Below, one piece after another: positions 1 through 13,974 of a stretch of DNA of 64,000 nucleotides. Location of the stretch: assembly GCA_016932855.1 (NCBI GenBank), contig JAFGCB010000016.1, positions 554 through 64,553 of the forward strand, in the 5' to 3' direction. The notes under the pieces were generated by a model. It did not search any database, was not told the DNA's origin, and saw only the letters and a program-made list of their open reading frames with translations. Both the position numbers and the translations under genes were made by a program. The DNA is from Candidatus Omnitrophota bacterium (GTDB lineage Bacteria; Omnitrophota; Gorgyraeia; Duberdicusellales; Duberdicusellaceae). Position 1 is the stretch's first letter; each line of letters begins with the position of its first letter.

Positions 1-1706
1 GGCTCGATAACAAATACCGCTCTGGGGCCTACGCCCTGCTGCCTGTGCCAGATATCGAAACTCTCGGCATTTGTCTGGTTGTCGAAATCCAGATAAAACC
101 TTAAGTATCTTCCGGATGCTCCAGGTATAGTCTCGCGCAGGGATATCCCGTCAACAAGCCAGCGAAGTTCACCCAAGGCTGCTCCGGAAGGCCCGAAGGA
201 TATATACTCGGAATTTGAAGACATGCGCAGATTACCGGAAATAAGAGCGCTTGCGTCAACTTCCAAACCGACAGAAGGCGCGGTTGTGCCTATGCCTACT
301 CTGTTACTTGCTGAATCAACGAAAAAAGTATCCGTATCTACGGTCATATCCCCGCCGGTTAAAGCCATATCGCCGCCGCTTATATTCAACCCGTTAGGTA
401 TAGATAAATTAGAAGCATTAAAGGTAAGGGTATCTCCGGAGGCAGCGCCTAAAATAGTGTCTCCGCCAACTCCCAGGTTTCCGCTTATATCCAAATCAGT
501 AAACCCGAAAGTGCCGACGCTTAAATTGCCCGCAATATTTACATTACCGCCAAAATCAGCATTACCGTCAACCTCAAAATCATCGGCAAGATAGGCGTCT
601 CCCGGACCTGCGACTATATCAGGCGTACCCGCGCCTACCATTAAAAGATTATCAAGATAGCTTATGCCGTCTACCTCGAAAGTGCCTTCAACAAACATAG
701 ACTCCCCGCCTAAGGCCTGAGTGGGCAGGGCATCCCCTACGGTTAAATCTCCGGAAAGAACTGCCACGTCATTATTTACATTAAGAATTTCAGTAGCGCC
801 CTTGGATAAGGACAAAACATCGCCGCCTCCGAGCTGGGTTACTTTAAGCCCTACGCCCTGGGTGTTTGCGCCTGCTGTAACCTCTAAGGCATCATTGGCA
901 GTAGAAGAAGAAGGGGTAAAATTAATAGATGTTCCGTCATGGGCAGTGCCGGTATAGTTAACTTCTAAGTATCCGTCAATAACGTAATTACCGGTTATGC
1001 CCAAGCCGCCGTTAACATGCAGCACCCCGTCCATATAGGCATCGCCGTCAACCTCGAGCGTACCGCTTATAAAGGCATCGCCGCCGTCTAAGGCTTGAGT
1101 CGGAGTTGCTCCTCCGAGCTTGAAGTTACCGCTGGCGATATTAACCATACGGGTCGCTCCACCGGCATTAACCACCAGGTCTTCGCCGGCGGCTGCGGCC
1201 ATATCAACCGCGGTGCCAGAAAAGGTAAGACTACCTTCCATAGTATCATCGGCATCCGAACGCAAGAACTGCGAACTCTTAAATCCTTCCAGGCGGTAAG
1301 AATTCAAGGCGTAAGCTGCCGAGGGAAGCTTTAGCCTCGGGCTCATCTCTCCGTCGCCGTCTACCTCTATGGAAATCCAATAGGTAGTATTGAAATCCAA
1401 GGCTGTAGGAAAAGCACTTGTATCTCCCAAGTAGGCGCTGAACAGACCGCTTGAACCTACGCTAAGAGGCTGAGTCTCGCTCCAAAGAGCCGAGCCTCCC
1501 TGCTGCTGGCTATAGAGCCTGAAAGTAAAGGTGTGAGCGCCGCTAAGAATCTCCTCCTCCTGGTTAGTCAGCCTTCCGTGACAGGTAATAACCCTGGGCG
1601 GAGACGAAAAAGCGTCGGTTTGCAAAAATATAAACTCAAAGAAGACCAGCACAATGAAGAAAGTGAAGAAAAAACGGACATTTTTAAAACTAGACCTTAA
1701 TAACAT
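1..1706 (-). CDS. Partial (runs off the window at position 1) large secreted repeat protein. It has an N-terminal signal peptide followed by Gly/Asp/Thr-rich repeats (GG..L.V.G motifs), suggesting a beta-helix or adhesin-like surface protein.
   Basis: Reverse-strand reading from the ATG at 1704-1706 gives MLLRSSFKNVRFFFTFFIVLVFFEFIFLQTDAFSS..., a hydrophobic signal peptide. AGGAGG sits 7 nt upstream. The frame stays open to position 1 with recurring G/D/T-rich units. No long plus-strand ORF competes. It is absent from the ORF track because it is incomplete. Confidence 0.5.
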   Translation of the reverse strand, partial: MLLRSSFKNVRFFFTFFIVLVFFEFIFLQTDAFSSPPRVITCHGRLTNQEEEILSGAHTFTFRLYSQQQGGSALWSETQPLSVGSSGLFSAYLGDTSAFPTALDFNTTYWISIEVDGDGEMSPRLKLPSAAYALNSYRLEGFKSSQFLRSDADDTMEGSLTFSGTAVDMAAAAGEDLVVNAGGATRMVNIASGNFKLGGATPTQALDGGDAFISGTLEVDGDAYMDGVLHVNGGLGITGNYVIDGYLEVNYTGTAHDGTSINFTPSSSTANDALEVTAGANTQGVGLKVTQLGGGDVLSLSKGATEILNVNNDVAVLSGDLTVGDALPTQALGGESMFVEGTFEVDGISYLDNLLMVGAGTPDIVAGPGDAYLADDFEVDGNADFGGNVNIAGNLSVGTFGFTDLDISGNLGVGGDTILGAASGDTLTFNASNLSIPNGLNISGGDMALTGGDMTVDTDTFFVDSASNRVGIGTTAPSVGLEVDASALISGNLRMSSNSEYISFGPSGAALGELRWLVDGISLRETIPGASGRYLRFYLDFDNQTNAESFDIWHRQQGVGPRAVFVIE

Positions 1707-2268: not shown

Positions 2269-5200
2269 TTATTTTCTTAAAACCATCTCTTCCCCTGAAG
2301 GTAAAAGTATTCTGGCAGTAACGAATATCAAGAGATTTCTTCTTTCAATACTATCGTATTCTTTACGGAATAAATTACCCAAAAGAGGTATGTCGCCTAA
2401 TAAAGGAACTTTGGATTTATTGTGAGTCCTTACCTCCTTTATCAACCCCCCTAAGACAACAGTGTCACCGCTTTCCACAGCTACCGTGGTAGCTAAGTTT
2501 CGCGAGCTGAAGCGGGGAAGGCTTACGTCTCCGGTGTACTGGAAATAATCCGCGGTGGCCTCGGATACTTCGGGAATAAGCGACAGGCTTATAGTCTCGG
2601 AATCAATACCCATAGAAGGCACAACTTTTAAGATAATACCCACGTCCCGCCTTACAAAGTCTGTAGGGACATTTTGAAATTCAGTCTCACCGGCATCATC
2701 GTAATCACCGTCGCCGTTTAAATCATACTGGACTATCTGGAATTCATAACGGGTAGGATAAATCCACTCATCAACAACTTTTATTGCCGCAAGCTGGTTG
2801 TTAAGCGTGGTTATCCTCGGAGCAGAGAGAGTCTTGGTTTTATTGGACTTCTCCAAAGCATGAAGAATCGCCTGAAACTGAGGGTCAGTCAAAACCCCTT
2901 TGTAGGTCAAGTTAAAGCCTTCGGCGGCATTGGTAAAGGCCGTAAAATCCACACCGCTGTCCTCGTCAACTCCATGCTTAAAAGCTCCGTTTTCCTGTTC
3001 TATCGCAGCATCAGAATTAGTCTTCCATTCAATGCCCAACTCTTTTAAATCAGTAACATCAACCTCCAGGAAACGGGCCTCAATTAAGATCTGGTAAGGA
3101 CATACATCCAGGTTATAAAGAATGTCTTCTACTACCTGAAGGTTCTTGGGAGTATTACTTATTATTAAAGAATTAGTTCTTTTATCCAGAACTATCTTGG
3201 CCTCAGCAGGCCACTCCACCGCCTCCTTTAAGGTATCTTCTAAAGTCTCTATCTTGGAAATCGAGGCAAAAGAAGAAAGGATTCCGGCCTGGGATGTCTC
3301 AGAGGTGGCAAATTCGGTAAAAAGCCCGGCACCCTTGGTAAGCTTATAAACCCTGGTCTCAATAGCCTCGGACTCAATCTCTTCGGGCAAAGCTATCCAG
3401 ACAAGATCCTCATCGACCCTAAAAGACAAACCAGCGCTTTTCAGCATATATTTTAACGCCTCGTAAGCCGGGGTGCTGTCAAACTTAGCAGTTACTTTCG
3501 GCTTCTTCTCCAGGACATTTCCCGAAAGAATAATATTAGCCCCTGTTTCCTGAGCGATAAACTCAGCCACATACTTAAGGCTTACATTATCAAAATCCAA
3601 AGTCACTCTTTTCTCTAATTTCTTTCTGATCTCGGGAATCACTACAACCGCAACAGGCTGTATCTCAACTTCTGTCTTGGCCGGCTCAATATAAGGAGGC
3701 TGTGAATACTCCGCTGCCTTGCGGAGCATCTGCCTGTCAGATTCCTCTTCCTCTCTTAAGGCGTCTTTCATTTCCTCTTTGTGCTTCTTTTTTTGAGCCT
3801 CATCTATTATCTTCTTGGCGGAAGGCGTGTAGTATATCCGGGGATTTCCTTCAAGCTTAATAACTTCCTGGAAATAACTTACAGCCTCATCATAAAGACC
3901 CTGCTTGTAGAGTTTAAGACCCTTGTAATAAAGGTTGCGTATTTTTATTATTTTCTCGATATCGTGCTCTTCTTTGACGTCAGTCTCCCAAAAAGCAGAG
4001 CTCTCTTCATCCCCCATGCCCTGAGAAGCCTGGCTATAAAATTCCTCATCCTGGGGCTCGTAACTTACGCTCTCCACAGGGTTTCTCCTGGGAGGCTTAG
4101 AGCTGATTTTTAAACCCACGTAATTAATCAGGGAATCAACCTCTTTATCGTCGGGAAAATCACCTTTAAGGCCTATGAGAATCTGCTCCGCCTGTTCATA
4201 TTCCTCCAGGACAATCAAATTCCGGGCCTGGGCAATAACCCTATTTTTGTTTTTTTCCGCAGCGCTACTTGTAACCAAAGTCTTTTTAGCGGCTGGTTGA
4301 GAGGCCTGCTTAAGAGAGGCTGCCTCTTTTACCTCTACAGCAGATGCGGGTCTATCAACCCTTGCCGGCTCGTTTCTACTTGCTGTTTCCTTAAGCCTCG
4401 TTTCTTTAAGTTCAGCCTGCCTGTTTTTCTCATCCATTAAGGCAAGTCTTCTTTCCTCTTTATCAATATAGGCATTAATCTTTAAGTTCATTGACCGGGC
4501 ATAATCTGAAACGGATTTCTCTCTAGAATACTTACCCTGCAACAGCTCAAGCTCTTCCAGGGCTGAATCATACTGCCTTTCTCTAATAAATTCGGATACT
4601 TTTTCCTTAGTCGAGGCAAAATCAGAAGAAAGCTTCTTTTGATAACGCCTCTTCTCAAGATAAGCTTTATCTCTTTCGTCCTTGGCAATATAAGATCTTA
4701 TCTTCGGCTGCATTGCTCTGGCGTAACTCAATACAGACCCTTGCCCGGGATACATCTCTTCCAATAAAGCAAGCTCCTTTAAAGCCTGTTTATATTCTCC
4801 TTCTTTTATAAGCCGTGATATTTTTCCCTTGGCAGAGGCTAAATCCGATTTAAGCTTCTGCTGATAATCTTTCCTCTCAAGATAAGCCCGGCGCTCTTCT
4901 TCTTTTTCAATATAGGAATTAACCTTTAAGCCCATTTTGCGGGTATAATTTGAAACCGACTTTTCTTGAGGATAAACACTCGCTAGTTCCTTAAGCTCTT
5001 CTAAGGCCCGGTCATACTCTTTTTCTTTGATAAAGTGAGCTACTCTCTGTTTAGCTGTTGAAAAATCAGCTGAAAGCCTCTGGCGGTAACGCTCCTCCTC
5101 AAAAGAAACGTCTACTTCCTCGTCTTTTTCCAGATATCCGCTTAGCCGCCGGCGCATTGCCGTTGAATAATCAAGAACTGTTTTCTCGCCAGGATAAATT

Positions 5201-6207
5201 CTTTCAAGCAAGGAAAGCTCGTTTAAGGCCGCTGAATACTGTCTTTCTTTTATAAGGCCGGATATATTTTTTTTCGTTGAGGCCAAATCCGAAAGCATTC
5301 TTTCTCTCTGAAGCTTCTGGCGTAAATCAGACTTTCTTGTTTCTTCCTTCTCCTCGGCTTTCTTTAAAACAGTAATAAGCGTCTTTACCGCCTTATCCTG
5401 AGGGTATTTTGAGTTAAGCACTTTAAAAATGGCTCTTGCTTGTTCAAAATCCTTATCAGCCACGGCGACTTTAAAACGCTTGATAAGGTCCTTTTTATCT
5501 GTCTGGGCCTGCTTATAAGTTTGAACCGGGGAATATTCTTCTTTCCTGGGTAAAGTTTCTTCCGGGGCCGCTTTCTTTACCAAGGGCTTCTCTACTTTTT
5601 TAACCTCTCTTATTACAGGCTGTTCCGCAGGTTCTTTCTTTACAGCAGACCTTATTACCTGAGGAGCCTCTATTTCATTTAATAAATCCCTTATTTTGGC
5701 ATCACCGGGATAAACCGCTGAAAGCTCGATAAGCATGGAACGGGCTTTCTTATAGTTGCCGTAAGAGATGTATTTTTCCGCTTTCTTAATAAGAGATATC
5801 TTCTTCTGAAGATCTTGCATCTGCTTTGCCCGGATTTGGGCTTGCTGCTTTTCAAGATAGCGGCTTGCCTTATCCTTAAGCTTACGGATATAAGAGGCTT
5901 CGGGACAATTCTGCAGAAGATTCTCAAACAAAACCAAAGCTTCCCGGTAATTCTTAGAACTATAGTAACTTCTTGCCTTCTTGTAAACCGACAGATCCCT
6001 GGAAGCCTGATTAAAATACTGCAGGGCTACCGCATTTCGAGGCTCGCCTCTTAGGATGGCTTCTGCTTTATTGACTACCCCCTGGAAGTTTCCTCTAAGG
6101 TAATTAATCCTTAGCCAGTCAGACCAGGAGTCATTGCTAGCATAGATGAAAAAAGTAGCTAAAACCGCGATAAAGCCACAAATAATTACTGCTTTTAGAA
6201 ACTTCAT
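2269..6207 (-). CDS. pilQ: Type IV pilus/type II secretion secretin (PilQ/GspD family). It carries a very long N-terminal extension: a TM/signal segment, TPR-like repeats and about five tandem ~64-aa repeats.
   Basis: The C-terminal VPLLGDIPLLGNLF motif and secretin-domain pattern (GDTVVLGGLIKE..., LLIFVTARIL) are present. N-terminal repeats follow the Y..A...L..L...YP pattern. ATG at 6205-6207 overlaps the upstream gene's stop (TGATG). Confidence 0.8.
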   Translation of the reverse strand: MKFLKAVIICGFIAVLATFFIYASNDSWSDWLRINYLRGNFQGVVNKAEAILRGEPRNAVALQYFNQASRDLSVYKKARSYYSSKNYREALVLFENLLQNCPEASYIRKLKDKASRYLEKQQAQIRAKQMQDLQKKISLIKKAEKYISYGNYKKARSMLIELSAVYPGDAKIRDLLNEIEAPQVIRSAVKKEPAEQPVIREVKKVEKPLVKKAAPEETLPRKEEYSPVQTYKQAQTDKKDLIKRFKVAVADKDFEQARAIFKVLNSKYPQDKAVKTLITVLKKAEEKEETRKSDLRQKLQRERMLSDLASTKKNISGLIKERQYSAALNELSLLERIYPGEKTVLDYSTAMRRRLSGYLEKDEEVDVSFEEERYRQRLSADFSTAKQRVAHFIKEKEYDRALEELKELASVYPQEKSVSNYTRKMGLKVNSYIEKEEERRAYLERKDYQQKLKSDLASAKGKISRLIKEGEYKQALKELALLEEMYPGQGSVLSYARAMQPKIRSYIAKDERDKAYLEKRRYQKKLSSDFASTKEKVSEFIRERQYDSALEELELLQGKYSREKSVSDYARSMNLKINAYIDKEERRLALMDEKNRQAELKETRLKETASRNEPARVDRPASAVEVKEAASLKQASQPAAKKTLVTSSAAEKNKNRVIAQARNLIVLEEYEQAEQILIGLKGDFPDDKEVDSLINYVGLKISSKPPRRNPVESVSYEPQDEEFYSQASQGMGDEESSAFWETDVKEEHDIEKIIKIRNLYYKGLKLYKQGLYDEAVSYFQEVIKLEGNPRIYYTPSAKKIIDEAQKKKHKEEMKDALREEEESDRQMLRKAAEYSQPPYIEPAKTEVEIQPVAVVVIPEIRKKLEKRVTLDFDNVSLKYVAEFIAQETGANIILSGNVLEKKPKVTAKFDSTPAYEALKYMLKSAGLSFRVDEDLVWIALPEEIESEAIETRVYKLTKGAGLFTEFATSETSQAGILSSFASISKIETLEDTLKEAVEWPAEAKIVLDKRTNSLIISNTPKNLQVVEDILYNLDVCPYQILIEARFLEVDVTDLKELGIEWKTNSDAAIEQENGAFKHGVDEDSGVDFTAFTNAAEGFNLTYKGVLTDPQFQAILHALEKSNKTKTLSAPRITTLNNQLAAIKVVDEWIYPTRYEFQIVQYDLNGDGDYDDAGETEFQNVPTDFVRRDVGIILKVVPSMGIDSETISLSLIPEVSEATADYFQYTGDVSLPRFSSRNLATTVAVESGDTVVLGGLIKEVRTHNKSKVPLLGDIPLLGNLFRKEYDSIERRNLLIFVTARILLPSGEEMVLRK

Positions 6208-7244
6208 CAGTCAACCTCCCGCTTTAATATCAATTCTTTTTGATTTTTTATATTTTTTAATATTAAACGATTCTCCTGAAACCCCTTTACTTCAAAATCT
6301 TCGATTTTTTCTCCTAAGCTTAAAAAGAAGACTTTATTTTTAACTGTATCTTCTACGGCAGCTACAGCTTCTCCTTTTAAACTGCCCATTCCTCTATAAA
6401 AGAAACGCTGGGTGGCTATCTTGGGGGCATCCTGCGGAGTCTTAGCAGAAATAACTTGATGGGTTTGCATCTTTTTAAATATCTTGTTCTGCAAGAATTT
6501 CTCCTTCAAATCACCGCTTACAATCACGTAATTCCTGTAATCTTTAGGCATAGCAGCATCGCTTATCGAACTTAGAACCCTACTGTCAACCATCAGCTTT
6601 GTAACTTTCATATTATAAGTAAAGCTCTCCTGCCGGCTTAATTCCATCTTCTCTATGCTCAGCAACGGTAAAAACTCGGTAAGTAACAATACGTACTGGG
6701 CAACATTTAAAGCCTCGGCCCTGAACCTAAGTTCTATGGCCAAAGACTTATTATCCTGCTGGGTCGGAGTGGGAATCTCCACAAAGGTAAAGTCTAGCCC
6801 TGCCTTCAAGCCTAAATCAACCGCTTTCTCTAATACCTCCATATTTCTTATAAAGTAAGGAGCGTCCTCCTTGGAAGGCAGAACTTTAGGAACCTCGATC
6901 TGAGGAGGCAATAATCCTTTTATCTCTGTTTTTAGCAATAGTTTCTTCTCTATGCCATCCAGCTTCCGGGCAAATACTATAGCCCCGTCGAATACGGTTT
7001 TATCTTCGCTTGAAATTGTATCGAACATATCCACTAAACCCATAAGCTTGCCTTCAAGCTTACGGGTGTCAACTTTCAGCCTCTCAAGCAAATCCTGAGT
7101 TACCGGTTTTTCCGTTTCGGACTCATAAGAATCTATTTTCTTCTTTAACGACACATTTATATTGCTCAAGATAATCACGCCGACTAAAGCTATCGCATTT
7201 AAAACAAGTATAGTGCTAATTAAGCTGTTGGATCTATCTTTCAT
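6207..7244 (-). CDS. Pilus assembly protein. It resembles a PilO-like region (N-terminal TM, coiled coil) followed by a PilP-like C-terminal beta domain.
   Basis: N-terminal TM helix (LISTILVLNAIALVGVIILS). Operon position is between pilMN and pilQ. ATGA overlap with the upstream gene. Confidence 0.45.
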   Translation of the reverse strand: MKDRSNSLISTILVLNAIALVGVIILSNINVSLKKKIDSYESETEKPVTQDLLERLKVDTRKLEGKLMGLVDMFDTISSEDKTVFDGAIVFARKLDGIEKKLLLKTEIKGLLPPQIEVPKVLPSKEDAPYFIRNMEVLEKAVDLGLKAGLDFTFVEIPTPTQQDNKSLAIELRFRAEALNVAQYVLLLTEFLPLLSIEKMELSRQESFTYNMKVTKLMVDSRVLSSISDAAMPKDYRNYVIVSGDLKEKFLQNKIFKKMQTHQVISAKTPQDAPKIATQRFFYRGMGSLKGEAVAAVEDTVKNKVFFLSLGEKIEDFEVKGFQENRLILKNIKNQKELILKREVD

Positions 7245-8611
7245 TTTTTAATAAGTTTAATTTTGAAATATATGGCTTCTTTGATTTCTCTTGTTGATTC
7301 GGAACGGGAAGAAACCGGCACAATTTGCGTAAAATACCCGCTTTCTCTTAAATCTCTAAGGAACTGTGATATATCATCGTATGAAGGGCTTTTTATATCC
7401 AGGTTTATCTGCCAATCTTCCTCTTTTACGAAATCAAATCTCTCAACCTCTATGTCGCCGAGCTCTCTGTCGATTAAACTTACGGCTTCCACCAGAAATC
7501 GATGATTTACGACTTCTTTCTCGAGGGGTTCAATCTGCTTAAGCAAACTCTCTTTCTTAAGATTAAGCTCCCTGTAAACCGGGATTAACTCGTTGGTGAT
7601 TTTCTCCTGAGAATCCACGGCTGTCCTGTTTATAATTATGCTGTTTAAAAGAAAAGCCGCTGCCCCGACAAGAAAAACTAAGCTAAGCGTGCTTACCAAA
7701 AGAGCTACCTTTAAAAACTTCTGCTTGTAGGCGTTCCAGAGATTCTTGTATCTGTCCTGCTCAATAAAATCGATGTTTAACAGGCCCTTCTCCAAGACCC
7801 CCAAAGAAGCGCCCAGAAGAACCGGCAACTGTTCTTTAAATTCTTCTAAATTTTTATCTTTCGCCTTAAATTTAATTCTTCTCTGGTTTATCTCAAAGAT
7901 ACTTAACTTAATCTTCAATTCCTCGGAAATCTTGCTAACAAGAGGCTCTTCTATCTTTCCGCATATAAATATCTCGCTAAAACTTTCCTTTGGCACTGCT
8001 TCCTGAAACTGAAGATATTCGGTAATCCTCCGAAGCTCTTTGGTAATGGTCGCTAAAACTGAACCTTCCGAAGAAGATTCAAAAGGCATTTCATATAAAA
8101 AGAATTTTGTCTTATGGAACACTAAAATATCTAAAAGTTCCCCGGTAAGATACAAAAAAGCAAAGCTTTCTTTTTCTTTAGGGTAATTAAAAACGAAATA
8201 ATTATAAAGACTGGAAGCCTTGCAAGTCAAAGAAACAGGAGTAACATTTAAGGAATCCAGATAGAAAAGAGTCTTCTCCACGTCTTTACTTTTAACTACG
8301 AAAAGAGTAAGCCTGCTGCCGAATACCTTATAATTCCATTTGGAATCCTTTAGAGAAAAAGGAGGTCTATGGAGGATAGAATCTTCTATTGTCCGTTTGT
8401 TCTTAAGCTGGTCCTTTCTTAAGGAAACGCTCTTTATAAACACGGGATAATCCAAGGTCACTACAGCCGGCGAGGATTTCTTTCTATGAAGGGAAATAAA
8501 TTCCTGGTTGCTCTCGATAAAACCGGATACAAGAAACTGATTGGCTTTCTTTACTACCTCTAAGCCTTTAACTTCCGCGTTCTTAACTATTAAACTAACT
8601 AATCTCTTCAC
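7241..8611 (-). CDS. pilM: PilM-PilN fusion protein: actin-like ATPase-fold PilM N-terminus, then a TM segment and PilN-like C-terminus.
   Basis: GTG start at 8609-8611 with AGGAG upstream. Internal TM (VALLVSTLSLVFLVGAAAFLL) follows a PilM-like N-terminus. It is in operon context with the secretin. Confidence 0.55.
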   Translation of the reverse strand: MKRLVSLIVKNAEVKGLEVVKKANQFLVSGFIESNQEFISLHRKKSSPAVVTLDYPVFIKSVSLRKDQLKNKRTIEDSILHRPPFSLKDSKWNYKVFGSRLTLFVVKSKDVEKTLFYLDSLNVTPVSLTCKASSLYNYFVFNYPKEKESFAFLYLTGELLDILVFHKTKFFLYEMPFESSSEGSVLATITKELRRITEYLQFQEAVPKESFSEIFICGKIEEPLVSKISEELKIKLSIFEINQRRIKFKAKDKNLEEFKEQLPVLLGASLGVLEKGLLNIDFIEQDRYKNLWNAYKQKFLKVALLVSTLSLVFLVGAAAFLLNSIIINRTAVDSQEKITNELIPVYRELNLKKESLLKQIEPLEKEVVNHRFLVEAVSLIDRELGDIEVERFDFVKEEDWQINLDIKSPSYDDISQFLRDLRESGYFTQIVPVSSRSESTREIKEAIYFKIKLIKK

Positions 8612-8629
8612 AAGCTTTACTCCTTAAGA

Positions 8630-8812
8630 TTAGCTTCTTCCCAATATTTTCTTAAGCCGGCCGATATCGTCAACAGCGTACTCCCTTCTGTTATTTATGG
8701 GATTACGCTTGGCCTTGGGAAAGATTTTTTTCTTCTCGTAGCGATAGAGAGTTTGCTTGGAAATACCAAGTATTTGAGCTACCTCCTGGGAATTATAAAA
8801 AGTCCTCTTCAT
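8630..8812 (-). CDS. Small HTH DNA-binding protein (excisionase/MerR-like HTH_17 type).
   Basis: TFYNSQEVAQILGISKQTLYRYEKKKIFP helix-turn-helix. ATG at 8810-8812 is preceded by GGAGG. The track's longer TTG start at 8857 is less likely. Confidence 0.5.
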   Translation of the reverse strand: MKRTFYNSQEVAQILGISKQTLYRYEKKKIFPKAKRNPINNRREYAVDDIGRLKKILGRS

Positions 8813-9040
8813 AGCCTCCGCCCTCCTTCTCAAAAAACTTTCAAACATACTATACAATGTTATACAAACATACTTAAACTTAACCCAATATCATCATAAT
8901 ATATCAAAGGCTATCTGTCAATGTCTTTATTACTCAAATACCTTATAGATTAAAATAAAAAATATAAATTTGTTAAAGATTTCAATAATAATTAACGGAT
9001 ATATAAGATTTGTGCTCGGTGCTGCAAAAACAGCTTTGGG

Positions 9041-11938
9041 CTAGAAGAGCTTAAGAAGCGTATGGGGACAAATACGGTTATAGGCGCACCAGTTACAGGA
9101 ACGGTAGGAAGGACTGGGTTTAAAATTTCTATTTCTTATCCCTTTTTCTACCTTGGAAATCTTTTCTTCAACCTTCTCAAAATCTTTGCCGGTTTTTTCT
9201 GCTCTGCCGATAAGCCCTGATTCCAAAAAATGTAGTTCCACCCTTTTAGGAAGCTTCCCGCATGATTTATAAAAGGCAAAGGAATAAAGATCCATCTGAA
9301 GACTTTCCTTAGCCCGTTTATCAGCATCCTCCTGGACCGTAACCGAAGAGGATGATTTAAAATCAATGATAACCCCTAGGCCTTCCTCAAGATCGATTCT
9401 GTCCCAGCGGCCTCTGATCACCGCCTTATTGAAAGTAAAGCGGAACTCCTTCTCTACCTCATGAGGCAACCTGCCGCAGCTCTCTTGACTTTGATAGAAC
9501 CTTTTAAGAGCATCCTTTGCCTCCTTTAGTCTTAAATCTTCATGCTCTCGGCTTATAAAACCTTCACAGCGCCAGGCGGCAAGAAATGCCTCCCAAAGCT
9601 TATCTTCGCTTATAGTCCTTTTTTGTTTTTTCTCCTCGTTGTATTTCTGAACCGCCTTATGTAAGGCGCTTCCGTAAACAATCGAATGATGCTGGATTAT
9701 AGGGACTCTTAGAATATGGACAAACTTGTATTTAAGAGGACAGGTTAAGTAATCGTCTATACGGTAAAAACTTAAAGCCAAAAGCTCACCATCGGCGATG
9801 CCGCCCAGCATGAACTTACTTGCGGCCTCTTTTCCGGCTTGGGCTTCTATGGCTTTTTCTATATCCTCTCTTTTTTCGGGTAAAATCTTCTTAGGTACAT
9901 CCAGAGTTTCGTATACGAACCTGCTTATCTTACGCAGCCTCTTTCCTCCGTAGTCCTGAGAAGAAGTAAGAATTACCTCCTCCTTTGCCCGGGTTAAAGC
10001 CACATAAAAAAGCCTACGCTCCTCTTGTATGTGGTAATCTCCTTGCGGAAGCATGTCCTTGTGAAGCTGCGAAGGAAGCTGCAATACGCTTGACCTTTTA
10101 GGCCAGGGGAATTTACCTTCAACAAGAGCGGCGATAATCACTACTCTAAATTCAAGACCCTTAGCCTTATGAACGGTCAAAACATTCACCGCGTCTACCT
10201 CCAAAGAAGCCTCTTGTATTTCCGGAGACTCTCCCGCCTCCATTACCATATCCAAATACTTAACAAAATATTGAAGTCTATTTTCCCGGGTTAAACCCTC
10301 GTACTCACGGATACTTTCGAAAAACTTGGCAATATTTCTTACTTTCTGCTCATTCTCCAGACTCTCCTGTTCAAGCAGAGTCTTTAAAATACCTTTGTCG
10401 GTAAGCCATATATAAAGAAGGCGACCTGTCGACTCCTGGGTGGAAAGTTCGATATAGTGTTTAAGCTCTTTTACCACCCGGGCTATTTTCTCTCTGGTCT
10501 TATCGTTAATTTTAGGAGCGTTTTCTAAATTATCTAGATTAGTTAAGACGTAGAAAAGGGATTGATTAATCCTTGAGGCGAAATTCGTAAGAGTAATTAA
10601 TTCCAAGGTATCCGGATCATAAAGCTTCTCAATCAGATAATAAAGGCTAAGGGAATCAGCGGGGTTTGCTACAAGCTTCAGGAAAGATAAGCAGAGACGT
10701 ATTTCCTCCTGGCTGTAAAGACCTCTATTGCCCGAAAATCGCCAGGGTATTGCCGCGATATTTAAAGCCCTTAAAAAGGGGTCGCTGTCATTATTTGATC
10801 TTACAAGAATAGCGAAGTCTTTGTATTTATAGCTGTCCCTTGAAACCCTTTCTTTTATAAGTGAAGCTATTCTATCGGCCTCCAAATTGAAATTATCAAA
10901 AAAATAAAATTTAACCGGTATAACCTTCTTTTTTTTATTAGGCTTAAGCCTCTTGTCAATATTGGCCTGTACGGCGAGTCTATCGGGATTATTATGCTGG
11001 ATAAGCTTAAAGGAAGTGTCAAGTATTGCTTTCTGCGAACGGTAATTTATGTTTATGCTTATCTTTTTGGCATCAGGGTAAAACTTCATAAAATTCATGA
11101 TATTACTGAAGGCCGCGCCCCGGAAACGGTAAATAGCCTGGTCATCATCGCAGACAACCATAATATTTTTATGGGCCTGGGCTAAAATAGTAAGCAGCAT
11201 AAGCTGGCAGAAATTGGTGTCCTGAAACTCATCCACTAAAATATATTTAAATTCCTGGTGGTATTTATTAAGAACTGAAGGGCGCTTTCTTAAAAGACAT
11301 AAGGCTAAATATACCTGGCTTGAGAAGTCAAGCTTTGCCTCTTGGATTTGAAGCTCCATGTATTTTTTGTAACACCGGGCTATTTCAATATGCCTCTCTT
11401 TATCTTCCTTTTCGGCGTCAGTATCCCGGGGTAAGCCCTGGGCAAACTCAAGGTATTCTTCAACGCTTATATCTTCGTCCCTGGCCCTGTCAAATATGCT
11501 TAAAAGAGCCTCTATGAATTTCGTGGGGTTTGAGGTAGGCCGGTATTTATTTAAAGGAAATTCGAAAAGGTGCTCCCTGAAAAAAACCACTGCCTGGTGC
11601 CGGGTTAAAATCTGGAAATCCGGGTCTAAGCCTATCTCTAAGGCATTTTCTCTTAAGACCTTGTCTCCGAAAGAATGAAAGGTCGATAACCAGGCATCCA
11701 CAAACCCGTAAGGAACCAGAATATCTACTCTTTCCTGCATCTGGTCAGCGGCCTTATCAGTAAAGGTAAGGGCTAAAATCTGGGAAGGACGGGCCTTCTT
11801 GGCAGTAATAAGATAGGCTATTCTTTTAGTGATTATCTGAGTCTTGCCTGTGCCTGCTCCGGCAATCACCAACAGCGGGCCGTCGGTATGAATAACTGCC
11901 TCTTTCTGCTGAGGATTTAGGTCTTTCAATAAATCCAT
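9041..11938 (-). CDS. UvrD/PcrA-family SF1 helicase fused to a C-terminal Cas4/AddB-like PD-(D/E)XK nuclease with a Cys cluster (Fe-S).
   Basis: Walker A motif AGAGTGKT with UvrD motifs. C-terminal nuclease has C...CNWCAYNRIC. The likely true start is the ATG at 11936-11938 (MDLLKDLNPQQ). The track's TTG at 12085 would overlap the rpmB promoter and gene. Confidence 0.75.
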   Translation of the reverse strand: MDLLKDLNPQQKEAVIHTDGPLLVIAGAGTGKTQIITKRIAYLITAKKARPSQILALTFTDKAADQMQERVDILVPYGFVDAWLSTFHSFGDKVLRENALEIGLDPDFQILTRHQAVVFFREHLFEFPLNKYRPTSNPTKFIEALLSIFDRARDEDISVEEYLEFAQGLPRDTDAEKEDKERHIEIARCYKKYMELQIQEAKLDFSSQVYLALCLLRKRPSVLNKYHQEFKYILVDEFQDTNFCQLMLLTILAQAHKNIMVVCDDDQAIYRFRGAAFSNIMNFMKFYPDAKKISININYRSQKAILDTSFKLIQHNNPDRLAVQANIDKRLKPNKKKKVIPVKFYFFDNFNLEADRIASLIKERVSRDSYKYKDFAILVRSNNDSDPFLRALNIAAIPWRFSGNRGLYSQEEIRLCLSFLKLVANPADSLSLYYLIEKLYDPDTLELITLTNFASRINQSLFYVLTNLDNLENAPKINDKTREKIARVVKELKHYIELSTQESTGRLLYIWLTDKGILKTLLEQESLENEQKVRNIAKFFESIREYEGLTRENRLQYFVKYLDMVMEAGESPEIQEASLEVDAVNVLTVHKAKGLEFRVVIIAALVEGKFPWPKRSSVLQLPSQLHKDMLPQGDYHIQEERRLFYVALTRAKEEVILTSSQDYGGKRLRKISRFVYETLDVPKKILPEKREDIEKAIEAQAGKEAASKFMLGGIADGELLALSFYRIDDYLTCPLKYKFVHILRVPIIQHHSIVYGSALHKAVQKYNEEKKQKRTISEDKLWEAFLAAWRCEGFISREHEDLRLKEAKDALKRFYQSQESCGRLPHEVEKEFRFTFNKAVIRGRWDRIDLEEGLGVIIDFKSSSSVTVQEDADKRAKESLQMDLYSFAFYKSCGKLPKRVELHFLESGLIGRAEKTGKDFEKVEEKISKVEKGIRNRNFKPSPSYRSCNWCAYNRICPHTLLKLF

Positions 11939-11990
11939 AATTATCTCGTAATGCGTAATGGGTAACGCGTTATGCGTGTATATTTTTGGC

Positions 11991-12018
11991 TTGACAAAAT
12001 ATTGATTTGAAGTATACT
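11991..12018 (+). promoter_or_regulatory. Sigma70-type promoter (TTGACA-16nt-TATACT) for rpmB. The ATG lies ~10 nt after the -10 box, giving a near-leaderless mRNA.
   Basis: Consensus hexamers read directly in the sequence. Confidence 0.4.
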
Positions 12019-12028
12019 CTTTAAAATC

Positions 12029-12280
12029 ATGAGTAAAAAATGCTTTTTTTGCGGTAAAAAATCTTCCGGGGGCAATGTTGTTCAAAGAAGAGGTCTAGCT
12101 AAGAAAAAAGGCGGCGTAGGCAAGAAAACTACCTCTATTACCAAACGTAAATTTAAGCCCAACCTTCAAAGAATAAGGGTAGATCTAAAAGGAGTTATCA
12201 AAAAAGTTTTTGCCTGTGCTAAATGCATCAAGAAAAACAAGATTCGCAAGCCCAAGCCGGCAATAAAACCCTCCCTCTGA
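12029..12280 (+). CDS. rpmB: 50S ribosomal protein L28.
   Basis: MSKKCFFCGKK...GN.V......G......RKFKPNLQ...V...G......CAKCIK pattern typical of L28. Confidence 0.7.
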   Translation: MSKKCFFCGKKSSGGNVVQRRGLAKKKGGVGKKTTSITKRKFKPNLQRIRVDLKGVIKKVFACAKCIKKNKIRKPKPAIKPSL

Positions 12281-12297
12281 ATTCCCCACGTTTTCCA

Positions 12298-13974
12298 TCA
12301 AGACATCCTTACATCTTTCAAGCTAAGTACTGCCTGGCTGTCAGGCTGATTTGATCTTATTTTCAGACTATAAACGACATCAAAGCACTGCCCGTACTCT
12401 AAGATCCGGAAAAACTTATTATTAGCTCCTATCCGGGCTGGGTATATAAAATTAGCATCGCCTCCTGCCTGCTCTTGGAACCAAACAAATTTGTCAGTGC
12501 CTTTATCGGTAATATTCTTAACTTTAAGACTCTTGGTAAGAAAAAGCGGCTCGGGGTTCGCTTCCCCGAAAGGGGAAAAAAGCTTAAGAGTCTCTAAAAA
12601 CTGGGGCGTTATCTCGGAAAAATTTATCTGCCTGTCTATTTCCAGGCTGGAAATAAGGTCTTTTTCTTTAAGGACTTTTTTTGCCACTTCATTTATGGCC
12701 TCGCGGAATTTATTTATCTTATCTTTTTCTATCTCTATACCACAGGCTTTCTTATGGCCGCCGTAATCTTTTAGATAATCTCTGCACTCATCCAAGGCCT
12801 GCATCAAATGAAAGTTGTCTATGCTCCTTCCCGAACCTTTTCCCAAATTTTCCTTTAAGGATATAAGAAAGGTGGGCCGAGAAAATCTTTCTTTAATATT
12901 AGAAGCGGCGATTCCTAAAATCCCGGAATGCCAGTCTTCCTCAAACAGGACAATTACGTAATCTTTACGTAAATCGACTTCGCTTTCAATCTTAGCTAAG
13001 GCGGAATTTAGAACCTCTTTGGACTCTTGCCTGCGTTGCTTATTGTTTTTTTCCAATACGATAGCAAGTTCAGAAGCTCTCTGCTCGCAATCGGAAGAAA
13101 GAAGCTCAAAAGCAGGATAAGCGCAGGAAATTCTGCCCGAGGCGTTTAAGCGCGGCCCCAGAATCCAGCCTAAATGAAAGGTATCTATATATTCGCTCTT
13201 TAAGGTAGTTTTCTTTATCAAAGACTCAATTCCCAGACAAGGAGAAGTCCTTAGCTTCTCCAGGCCCAGCTTAACTAAAATCCTGTTCTCATCTAAAAGA
13301 GGCGCTACATCGCAGACTATAGACAGACTTACCAAATCTAAATACTCGTAAGCAAATATCCCCTTCAAAGCCCAGATGAGCTTAAAAGTAAGCGCGCCGG
13401 TAGACACTTCCTTGAAGGGATAGATAGAGTCTTGTCTCTTGGGGTTAACTAAAAGAAAATTCCTCTTCATCTTAAAAGATTCATGGTGGTCCACCACAAC
13501 AACATCCAGGCCCAGAGATTTCGCCTCATTGAGCAATCTGGAATTAGTCCCGCAATCAAGAGCAATAATCAAAGTCGCGCCTTCCTGGATTGCTTTGGCA
13601 AAGGCTTTTTTGTTAAAACCGTATCCGTCATCGATCCGGGAAGGGATAAGCACAAAAAAATCCACCCCTCTTTTAGAAAAATAATCGCTGAGCATAGCCA
13701 GGGAAGTAATCCCGTCAACATCATAGTCACCGAAAAGAAGTATTTTCTCCTTGTTGTCTATGGCTTTTCTTATTCTTAATACCGCTTCTTCCAAATCAGG
13801 AAGAAGCGACGGCTCATGTATAAACTTCCGTTTTGGATAAAGAAACTTTTGCGATTCTTCCTTATCTTTTACGTTTCGGTTAACAAGCAACTGACAGACG
13901 CTTAAAGAAAGTCCGGTTTCTTCAGCCAGCTTTTTAACCTCGCTTGTCTCTTCTGCAACCTTCCAATTCTTCAC
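12298..13974 (-). CDS. recJ: Single-stranded-DNA-specific exonuclease RecJ (DHH/DHHA1).
   Basis: LLFGDYDVDGITS and VVDHHE DHH motifs. GTG start. Confidence 0.9.
   Translation of the reverse strand: MKNWKVAEETSEVKKLAEETGLSLSVCQLLVNRNVKDKEESQKFLYPKRKFIHEPSLLPDLEEAVLRIRKAIDNKEKILLFGDYDVDGITSLAMLSDYFSKRGVDFFVLIPSRIDDGYGFNKKAFAKAIQEGATLIIALDCGTNSRLLNEAKSLGLDVVVVDHHESFKMKRNFLLVNPKRQDSIYPFKEVSTGALTFKLIWALKGIFAYEYLDLVSLSIVCDVAPLLDENRILVKLGLEKLRTSPCLGIESLIKKTTLKSEYIDTFHLGWILGPRLNASGRISCAYPAFELLSSDCEQRASELAIVLEKNNKQRRQESKEVLNSALAKIESEVDLRKDYVIVLFEEDWHSGILGIAASNIKERFSRPTFLISLKENLGKGSGRSIDNFHLMQALDECRDYLKDYGGHKKACGIEIEKDKINKFREAINEVAKKVLKEKDLISSLEIDRQINFSEITPQFLETLKLFSPFGEANPEPLFLTKSLKVKNITDKGTDKFVWFQEQAGGDANFIYPARIGANNKFFRILEYGQCFDVVYSLKIRSNQPDSQAVLSLKDVRMS

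Follow-up and report, generated by a model that had tools for sequence, protein, structure and literature searches.

What does a type IV pilus (T4P) secretin do with 865 residues that lie N-terminal to its core? The question is raised by a contig of Candidatus Omnitrophota bacterium (JAFGCB010000016.1), of which a stretch of 64,000 nucleotides (nt), called the window below, was analysed. Positions 2269-8857 of the window hold four co-directional open reading frames (ORFs) on the minus strand:

8630..8857, minus strand: 75-aa MerR/HTH_17-type protein, first gene of the cassette (Pfam above cut-off)
7241..8611, minus strand: 456-aa PilM::PilN fusion (orthologues and family profile)
6207..7244, minus strand: 345-aa PilO::PilP-like fusion (AlphaFold2 fold, Foldseek, split orthologues)
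2269..6207, minus strand: 1312-aa secretin, whole ORF (Pfam, NCBIfam/TIGR models, homologues)

These coordinates are exactly those of an initial annotation, which had proposed a pilus operon of four genes, with fusions among its alignment components and a secretin of great length, rich in repeats resembling the tetratricopeptide repeat (TPR); the proposal is upheld. The locus is a cassette that encodes the regulator, the alignment complex and the secretin of an Omnitrophota T4P machine, of the PVC (Planctomycetes-Verrucomicrobia-Chlamydiae) type and similar to Amuc_1098-1101 of Akkermansia. For the cassette and its secretin, we lean towards a reading in which an ordinary secretin core carries a built-in periplasmic TPR arm, with a conserved proximal working site and a distal scaffold of variable length.

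An ordinary N0-N1-secretin core makes up the last 447 aa of the protein and is arranged as follows:

2305..2859, minus strand: secretin pore domain, aa 1117-1301 (PF00263; solved relatives are T4P PilQ)
3058..3255, minus strand: N1 (Secretin_N), aa ~985-1050 (PF03958 at aa 987-1035 with 25.6 bits, just short of the cut-off of 28.2)
3388..3612, minus strand: N0 (STN-like), aa 866-940 (weak matches to STN at aa 891-934, just short of its Pfam cut-off, GspD N0 at 870-928 and FecR_C at 870-937)

Membership in the secretin superfamily is indicated by the match of aa 1117-1301 to Pfam PF00263 (131.9 bits, cut-off 27.5). The best solved relatives of the core are the T4P PilQ structures 6w6m (V. cholerae), 4av2 (Neisseria) and 9sh1, whose alignments start in N0, and the PilQ model TIGR02515 aligns end to end, with aa 866-1301 covering model positions 2-427 of 428. 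The initial annotation had found neither AMIN nor N0-N1 in this protein. Its statement on AMIN stands, with no match in the 1312-aa protein at E <= 0.1, while N0 and N1 are present at aa 866-1050.

Where proteobacterial PilQ has AMIN domains, the window secretin is predicted to have an 840-aa all-helical extension of four modules (M1 to M4), which follows a probable signal peptide:

6136..6207, minus strand: probable Sec signal peptide, aa 1-24 (sequence pattern common to all complete homologues, judged by eye)
5665..6135, minus strand: module M1, aa 25-181, helical, three TPR-like hairpins (TPR_14/TPR_6 at aa 75-108, TPR_19 at 142-177; pLDDT 86-95)
4390..5520, minus strand: module M2, aa 230-606, five hairpin-plus-long-helix units (AlphaFold2 227-605, pLDDT ~85-94)
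4420..5307, minus strand: four ungapped 74-aa tandem repeats, aa 301-596, inside M2 (repeat hidden Markov model, HMM)
4102..4260, minus strand: module M3, aa 650-702, single TPR-like unit (conserved in 807-853-aa relatives)
3613..3963, minus strand: module M4, aa 749-865, N0-proximal TPR LYYKGLKLYKQGLYDEA...LEGNPRIYYTPSAKK, long helix and Pro-rich 'PPYIEP' linker (TPR_2/TPR_1 at aa 759-787)

Signal included, the extension N-terminal to the core comprises 865 aa (aa 1-865). Judged by eye, its N-terminus, MKFLKAVIICGFIAVLATFFIYAS, consists of MKFLK, an 18-residue hydrophobic stretch and IYA|S, and aa 1-24 look like a cleavable Sec signal peptide. The same inspection revealed no [LVI][ASTVI][GAS]C lipobox; the Cys at residue 10 follows V-I-I, and the homologues are without a consistent lipobox. 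Three Pfam TPR families are matched by the 1312-aa protein above their cut-offs, namely TPR_19 (51.3 bits, cut-off 25), TPR_14 (43.2, 23.5) and TPR_6 (28.3, 26.3). Module M1 includes a 'YYSS..Y..A' hairpin that is also present in distant relatives, and aa 384-444 of M2 give a weak YbgF/CpoB TPR match of 34 bits. M4 is the best-conserved part of the extension; its TPR occurs family-wide, and the module aligns to the Amuc_1098_fam model from position 149.

The four 74-aa repeats share 36-50% pairwise identity and each scores 118-123 bits against an HMM built from the units, with weak partial copies at aa 83-122, 141-179, 249-280 and 663-703. Tandem Repeats Finder found no DNA-level tandem repeat beneath them, and a BLASTP self-comparison of the secretin returned the identity match alone, the repeats being detected with the HMM instead. 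A unit consists of one TPR motif with a G15/Y17/A20/L24/P32 signature, a 14-aa B helix and a helix of ~52 aa, which first caps its own hairpin and then serves as helix A of the next unit, leaving ~40 aa between TPR motifs. Such three-helix units on continuous helices would be spectrin-like in their logic. From the helix lengths we estimate ~5-6 nm per unit if the units are collinear, an arrangement that the predicted TM-score (pTM) of the model does not back. Altogether the extension holds about ten isolated TPR hairpins, four of them in the 74-aa units and about six being degenerate single hairpins. The initial annotation, which had described an anchor helix, TPR-like repeats and about five 64-aa units over ~900 aa, was therefore right about the TPR-like, repetitive character; the extension is instead 865 aa long, with four 74-aa units and, by eye, a signal peptide.

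In the AlphaFold2 model, the extension is all-helical after the signal, with four modules (aa 27-180, 227-605, 649-702 and 747-834) at pLDDT ~85-95 and four Pro/Ala/Ser/Glu-rich linkers between modules at pLDDT < 50. A Foldseek search with the extension disclosed local TPR likeness only, with TM-scores <= 0.2, among matches that include BamD (3qky) and a Campylobacter motor scaffold. The latter, from the Campylobacter jejuni flagellar motor (9hmf chain K, E 1.4e-4), shares with the predicted arm the notion of periplasmic TPR spokes or a cage; however, the TM-score of 0.08 reflects local TPR similarity alone, the machine is a different one, and its scaffold proteins are separate rather than fused.

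An ORF of this length could result from a TPR gene and a secretin gene joined by a frameshift or in a chimeric contig, and the initial annotation had named such an assembly-derived fusion as something to check. We consider the artefact as good as ruled out. The reading frame is uninterrupted, and collinear full-length orthologues were found in independent assemblies: two proteins of 1290 aa (P0126) and 1162 aa (P0127), and the 1154-aa secretin of locus L008 (handles with P denote homologous proteins, those with L the loci compared). P0126 shares 41-43% identity over the whole extension and also has four repeat units, whereas P0127 and L008 have one strong 74-aa unit plus weak ones. L008 belongs to a GTDB Omnitrophota genome and has the same gene order, helicase-HTH-447-338-secretin (1154 aa). 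No part of the extension is better conserved than the boundary itself, aa 750-865, which aligns to the Amuc_1098 family model together with N0-N1 as a single block. The AT skew on the coding strand does shift near the TPR/secretin boundary, because the extension is Lys/Glu-rich. NCBI holds an identical 1312-aa protein, titled 'MAG: tetratricopeptide repeat protein [Candidatus Omnitrophica bacterium]', and the 345-aa protein is identical there too.

The initial annotation had also proposed a comparison of PilQ lengths in relatives, and this comparison produced the long orthologues together with a broad length series. A word-indexed search with the N-terminal 865 aa returned only the protein itself, so an exhaustive HMMER search was needed to find relatives. 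Statements on core homologues refer to the best 120 of 6503 core matches, which are Omnitrophota secretins with 49-68% identity. About 38 of the 120 have an extension of at least 160 aa, many with Pfam TPR matches, and dozens of Omnitrophota secretins carry TPR or charged-helix extensions of 240-380 aa. Extension length among the close core homologues is continuous from about 60 to 376 aa, as compared with 865 aa in the window. We found no description of Omnitrophota secretins in the literature.

Conservation of the extension is graded along its length. Between the window secretin and P0126/P0127, the core is 74-80% identical and the extension 32-41%. The distal part (aa 25-606, with the repeat array) is clade-specific, and its rate of evolution is about twice that of the core; among the relatives compared, this part is common to P0126, P0127 and L008 only. 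Residues ~650-865 are shared by the 807-853-aa forms, and aa ~750-865 by every compared relative with an N-terminal extension. A one-to-one pairing of the four repeats in the window protein with those in P0126 is ambiguous, within-protein scores being at least as high as between-protein scores. Secretins of more than 900 aa also occur with ER/K-rich extensions (P0130, 1138 aa; P0133, 1194 aa, partial; P0140, 1033 aa; P0131, 955 aa, partial). In these four proteins as well as P0015 and P0021, hundreds of ER/K-rich residues replace the TPR-helix repeats at the same position, and they look like a single alpha-helix or a coiled coil.

The closest described counterpart is PilQ of Akkermansia muciniphila (Amuc_1098, 907 aa), from the pilus-like cluster Amuc_1098-1102, a protein in which an N-terminal BamD-like domain of three TPRs precedes a C-terminal secretin, and which was likened to pilotins and localised to the outer membrane (Ottman et al. 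2016, PMC4960237). Its family model, NF042912, is collinear with aa 750-1065 of the window protein (model 149-488), which extend from the proximal TPR up to and including N1, and it aligns collinearly with the pore domain as well; at 182 bits against a cut-off of 750, the window secretin is a homologue and not a member. The partner genes agree as well, with a weak match of the 456-aa protein to the PilM-like Amuc_1101 and with the PilO-like Amuc_1100 as the top fold match of the 345-aa protein. In contrast to the 907 aa and one three-TPR domain of Akkermansia PilQ, the window secretin has 1312 aa, about ten dispersed hairpins, four 74-aa repeats and disordered linkers, and the PilO- and PilP-like genes are fused in the window locus.

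Given this precedent, the collinearity with Amuc_1098 and the phylum-wide occurrence of extensions, a TPR-secretin fusion is already published, and the initial annotation's view of the covalent fusion as unusual does not hold. The fusion is probably ancestral to a PVC/Omnitrophota group. New here are the extreme expansion, the dispersed hairpin-helix architecture and the length plasticity of the arm.

Relative to the PilQ/PilMNOP machines of type IVa pili (T4aP; M. xanthus 3jc8, N. meningitidis 4av2, V. cholerae 6w6m), the locus has the same N0-N1-secretin core and PilM/N/O/P-type genes upstream; it differs in the helical TPR array that replaces AMIN and in the fusion of PilM with PilN and of PilO with the PilP-like part. 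The pilotins PilF/PilW/Tgl (T4aP) and TadD (Tad) are likewise TPR-based and functionally tied to a secretin. They are, however, separate lipidated proteins that form a compact contiguous superhelix, whereas the window arm is fused, without a lipobox, and made of dispersed hairpins with long helices and linkers. Instead of the run of about six contiguous TPRs of a pilotin, we found single motifs, ~40-aa helices and four disordered linkers.

The proteins encoded upstream of the secretin fit an alignment complex. Their predicted parts are the following:

7631-7717, minus strand: transmembrane (TM) helix of the 456-aa protein, aa ~299-327, between the PilM part, actin-like and cytoplasmic, and the PilN-like part in the periplasm (aa ~328-456)
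6591-6917, minus strand: PilO-type double alpha-beta-beta core of the 345-aa protein, aa ~110-218, after an N-terminal TM helix and a coiled coil
6219-6410, minus strand: C-terminal beta domain of the 345-aa protein, aa ~279-342, after a low-confidence linker

Searched alone, the 456-aa protein gave a weak match to PilN (PF05137) at aa 398-442 (17.5 bits, cut-off 22.8), no match to PilM_2 (PF11104) and the Amuc_1101 match mentioned above. Its aa 59-436 are 22% identical to the 538-aa PilM_2/FtsA/PilN protein at the same operon position in L001. The syntenic orthologues of L001 (538 aa) and L003 (507 aa) match PilM_2 with E 1e-33 to 1e-34 (116-119 bits) and PilN with E 1e-7 to 1e-10 (32-41 bits), and a profile of seven syntenic orthologues finds PilM (6.5e-42, profile 1-307) and PilN (5.5e-4, profile 367-462) of M. 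xanthus 3jc8. Because the orthologues and the family profile match both PilM and PilN, we assign the 456-aa protein, on sequence grounds, as a PilM::PilN fusion, shortened and diverged with respect to the 507-538-aa orthologues.

The layout of this fusion is that of GspL of the type II secretion system (T2SS), in which a cytoplasmic actin-like domain is followed by a TM helix and a periplasmic ferredoxin-like domain, and weak matches to T2SSM_b and T2SSC among orthologues of the 345-aa protein recall GspM and GspC. In contrast, the sequence affinity is to PilM_2/PilN and not to GspL, and the cassettes of relatives come with pilin and PilB (MshEN-T2SSE).

For the 345-aa protein, no family match was found in Pfam or the curated models, and a word search returned just three close relatives. 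Its AlphaFold2 model has a mean pLDDT of 54, with 65-84 over most of aa 91-160. Against the PDB, Foldseek matched the model to Amuc_1100 (6lad, 3.3e-4), M. xanthus PilO (1e-3) and P. aeruginosa PilO (4.5e-3), and the best match of the family profile was again PilO, weakly (0.027). In L003 (8687-10014), L005 (4194-5503) and L006 (4141-5474), the gene is split into proteins of 251-253 and 185-191 aa. The 253-aa protein of L003 reaches the Pfam cut-offs of PilO (PF04350) and T2SSM_b and aligns to the N-terminal part of the 345-aa protein. The N-terminal part of the latter is PilO-like, as supported by both fold and orthologues. The C-terminal domain is beta-rich (pLDDT 42-60), and the 189-aa protein of L003, with a weak HofP match, aligns to it at aa 281-340; orthologues give weak T2SSC (0.007) and HofP (0.01-0.04) matches. 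A profile of this domain found neither PilP nor GspC in the PDB, Pfam matches being marginal, and a PilP-like identity is only suggested. The two genes of the tandem-secretin lineage described below and the single gene of the window's lineage form a clean case of fusion or fission within the phylum.

The first gene of the cassette encodes a helix-turn-helix (HTH) protein of the MerR type, with Pfam scores of 34.5 (HTH_17), 33.7 (MerR) and 32.6 bits (MerR_1), each above cut-off. With 75 aa it is a stand-alone HTH that has no effector domain. A MerR-type gene of 60-74 aa precedes PilMN in L001, L003, L005, L006, L011 and L012, and in L008 a 60-aa ORF is known at this place by position alone. The 75-aa protein is probably the regulator of the operon. 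The last three ORFs overlap at their junctions by 4 nt (456-aa/345-aa) and 1 nt (345-aa/1312-aa), an arrangement typical of translational coupling within an operon. The gap 5' of the HTH gene contains a candidate promoter:

8893..8921, minus strand: candidate sigma-70-type operon promoter, TTGACA-17-TATGAT, 11/12 matches, intergenic and 5' of the HTH gene

The total of promoter-like sites in the region is not above shuffle expectation, and only position and match quality argue for this candidate. Further upstream of the cassette, the window carries genes for an AddA-type helicase-nuclease, RecJ and ArgRS, and a trp operon. An Rfam scan of the window gave zero matches.

Two types of operon can be distinguished among the relatives. 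Type 1 (L003, L005, L006) consists of HTH, PilMN, split PilO, split PilP-like, a long TPR secretin of 818-847 aa and a short secretin of 500-503 aa. Type 2, that of the window, has HTH (not called in L007), PilMN, fused PilOP and one long secretin of 690-1312 aa, with pilins, T2SSF, a lamin-tail-domain (LTD) protein and MshEN-T2SSE as frequent neighbours (L001, L007, L011, L012); the cassette stands together with pilins, T2SSF (PilC) and MshEN-T2SSE (PilB) in L001, L011 and L012. In the tandem secretins of type 1 (L003 10001-13970, L005 5500-9512, L006 5461-9503), the armed form lies directly before the armless form. Both cores are ~52% identical to the window core, and heteromeric or stacked rings are a possibility.

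Several further observations concern these loci. The LTD protein, of ~900-1040 aa, is encoded in L001 (3528-6605), L003 (1747-4857), L011 (2523-5210) and L012 (1568-4654) and is absent from the window. Its gene directly follows a pilin gene and precedes HTH/PilMN in L001, L011 and L012; in L003 it lies further upstream, with a gene for an Ig-like protein between LTD and HTH. Locus L009 (CAZSAI010000108.1), labelled 'uncultured Planctomycetia', contains an Omnitrophota-type fused PilOP and, matching the window extension, the first part of a long TPR secretin, and its label is probably a binning or labelling issue. In L011, a gene at 11737-13266, between PilB and a T2SSJ-like minor pilin, encodes a 509-aa TPR protein that we considered as a trans version of the arm; the candidate was rejected: a polytopic membrane protein whose TPRs are C-terminal, it is not related to the arm.

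Downstream of the secretin, the window opens within another gene:

1..1706, minus strand: 5' portion of the gene for a large, secreted, fibre-like protein (568 aa or more), with signal peptide and MAT-like N-domain, running past the window start

Between the secretin stop and the start of this gene lies a spacer of 560 nt (1707-2268), AT-rich with ~38% GC, in which neither a terminator-like site nor an Rfam match was found; in L007 a 121-aa ORF fills the same position. The fibre-like ORF carries 'VGIGTTAPS..LEV' motifs. Its N-domain scores 25-28 bits (E 1e-5 to 2e-6) against NF053851 Bdello_MAT_N, and three Omnitrophota proteins score 25-32 bits (E 9e-8 to 1.3e-5) over model positions 3-87 of 162, all below the cut-off of 60. 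A signal peptide and an N-domain of 130-190 aa, 39-66% identical, likewise stand at the head of ORFs in five relatives:

L001 12665-21925: fibre ORF
L007 11044-18466: fibre ORF
L010 ~2649-3149: fibre ORF
L011 15350-18073: fibre ORF
L012 10439-14539: fibre ORF

The fibre-like ORFs range in length from 1366 to > 5335 aa. They lie directly downstream of the secretin in L001/L002, L007, L010 and L012; in L011 the distance is 5 kb, within the same cluster. An N-domain-headed giant ORF is thus present in 6/6 type-2 loci with enough downstream DNA (window, L001/L002, L007, L010, L011, L012); L002 is a second copy of L001, and the six loci represent five independent assemblies. The flanks of the type-1 loci L003, L005 and L006 yielded no fibre gene. 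The initial annotation had taken the neighbour for a possible pilus-associated adhesin, which this recurrence makes plausible. Gene neighbourhood and sub-threshold homology together suggest a functional link between pilus machine and fibres.

The resemblance is to the mosaic adhesive trimer (MAT) proteins of Bdellovibrio bacteriovorus, which likewise have a conserved N-domain followed by a long, variable fibre-like region (PMC10769870). The Omnitrophota proteins differ in being far larger, in lying beside a T4P secretin and in scoring below the NF053851 cut-off. The MAT N-domain must bind an as yet unidentified element of the predator surface, and a possible interplay with type IV pili was mentioned (Caulton et al. 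2024, PMC10769870).

Under the reading that we favour, a conserved proximal site and a variable distal scaffold on an ordinary core, the secretin would be exported by Sec and its signal peptide cleaved, and each of the 12-15 protomers of the ring would extend one arm from the N0 ring into the periplasm. The conserved proximal TPR would be the working interaction site, supplying in cis what TPR or AMIN accessories do elsewhere, that is, assembly or stabilisation of the secretin and a link to the wall or to further envelope partners. Distally, the hairpin-helix array would act as a spectrin-like spacer or strut whose length changes by repeat gain and loss, and it could extend the reach of the distal TPR hairpins to form spokes or a cage around the basal body.

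Several results weigh against this interpretation. The pTM of the model is 0.27, locally confident with a globally undefined arrangement of modules, and no peptidoglycan-binding or other partner-specific domain was found in the arm. The curated models were matched below their cut-offs, with 196.1 bits against 284.35 for TIGR02515, 211.9 against 351.35 for the GspD model TIGR02517 (only aa 990-1301 align, to model 288-590) and the NF042912 score given above, an equivalog cut-off in that case; these shortfalls place the protein in a divergent lineage of T4P-type secretins. A search of the 64-kb window for a pilin motif, PilC, PilB and a second secretin found none, so the T4P assignment rests on the cassette and its relatives. 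The close relatives P0015 and P0021 are without a distal TPR hairpin. Extension length varies hugely, down to the ~500-aa armless paralogue beside the long form; this variation could mean that the distal part is dispensable, and it speaks against a strict ruler.

Could the fused TPRs instead be a pilotin in cis, chaperoning monomers, targeting them to the outer membrane and promoting multimerisation like PilF/PilW/Tgl or TadD? Such a role has been proposed for the homologous Akkermansia PilQ (Ottman et al., PMC4960237). It would fit the Pfam TPR families above cut-off, weak BamD/YfiO and YbgF matches, the Foldseek match to BamD 3qky and the lack of an obvious separate pilotin gene in the cassette or in the clusters of relatives. 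Nevertheless, Cys10 after V-I-I makes no lipobox and the homologues are inconsistent, the isolated hairpins with 40-aa helices and disordered linkers do not form a contiguous six-TPR superhelix, and short TPR-less paralogues exist. Moreover, the arm is joined to N0, and solved secretins have their N0 end farthest from the outer membrane. We regard the pilotin role as unlikely. An inner-to-outer-membrane tether, with the N-terminal helix as an uncleaved signal anchor and the array spanning the periplasm, corresponds to the anchor and rod of the initial annotation. The AlphaFold2 model does contain a hydrophobic helix at aa 2-23, and at ~5-6 nm per unit a collinear array would be able to span the periplasm, which leaves a periplasm-spanning rod possible in principle. 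The n-h-c layout with small residues at -1/-3 is, however, typical of cleaved Sec signals and recurs in the homologues, an extension of 60-865 aa among close relatives is a misfit with a fixed envelope distance, and in known machines N0 already adjoins the inner-membrane PilP ring. This tether has little chance of being the correct explanation.

The fibre gene raises a different alternative, in which a partly T2SS-like machine exports or anchors MAT-like fibres and the TPR array binds the fibre N-domain or holds the fibre at the pore. The T2SS and T4P machines are homologous, the giant ORF recurs in 6/6 single-secretin loci with fused PilOP from five independent assemblies, and the MAT N-domain is in want of a surface partner, with T4P interplay mentioned (Caulton 2024, PMC10769870). 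Against these points, the MAT_N matches reach only 25-32 bits where the cut-off is 60, the flanks of L003, L005 and L006 have no fibre gene despite TPR-bearing secretins, and a gene neighbourhood is no proof of physical interaction. To our knowledge, trimeric fibres of several thousand residues are not among T2SS substrates. We judge a docking platform of this kind improbable. A broader version, in which the TPR-armed secretin and the downstream MAT-like fibre of one Omnitrophota lineage make up a single organelle for attachment or predation, with the secretin or its arm as the long-sought surface element that docks or exports MAT-type fibres and the expandable arm serving as a periplasmic cage that braces the machine in ultra-small, probably host-dependent cells, is speculative and seems doubtful to us.

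The locus is an extreme variant of the PVC-type TPR-secretin within a T4P alignment/secretin cassette, and its value lies in the repeat-built arm and in the secretin-fibre synteny. Secretins are usually described as requiring separate pilotins or AMIN domains; Omnitrophota, like Akkermansia, have TPR elements built into the secretin itself. The built-in arm grows from nothing to ~860 aa, by way of hairpin-helix repeats or charged helices, and provides a natural length series for testing the role of periplasmic secretin extensions. The fused PilM::PilN and PilO::PilP-like genes, together with the split forms of sister lineages, document fusion and splitting of alignment-complex genes. Omnitrophota are suspected of a predatory or parasitic lifestyle, and the pairing of the cassette with a MAT-like fibre is the more consequential lead, pointing to a testable candidate for the anchor or exporter of these fibres.

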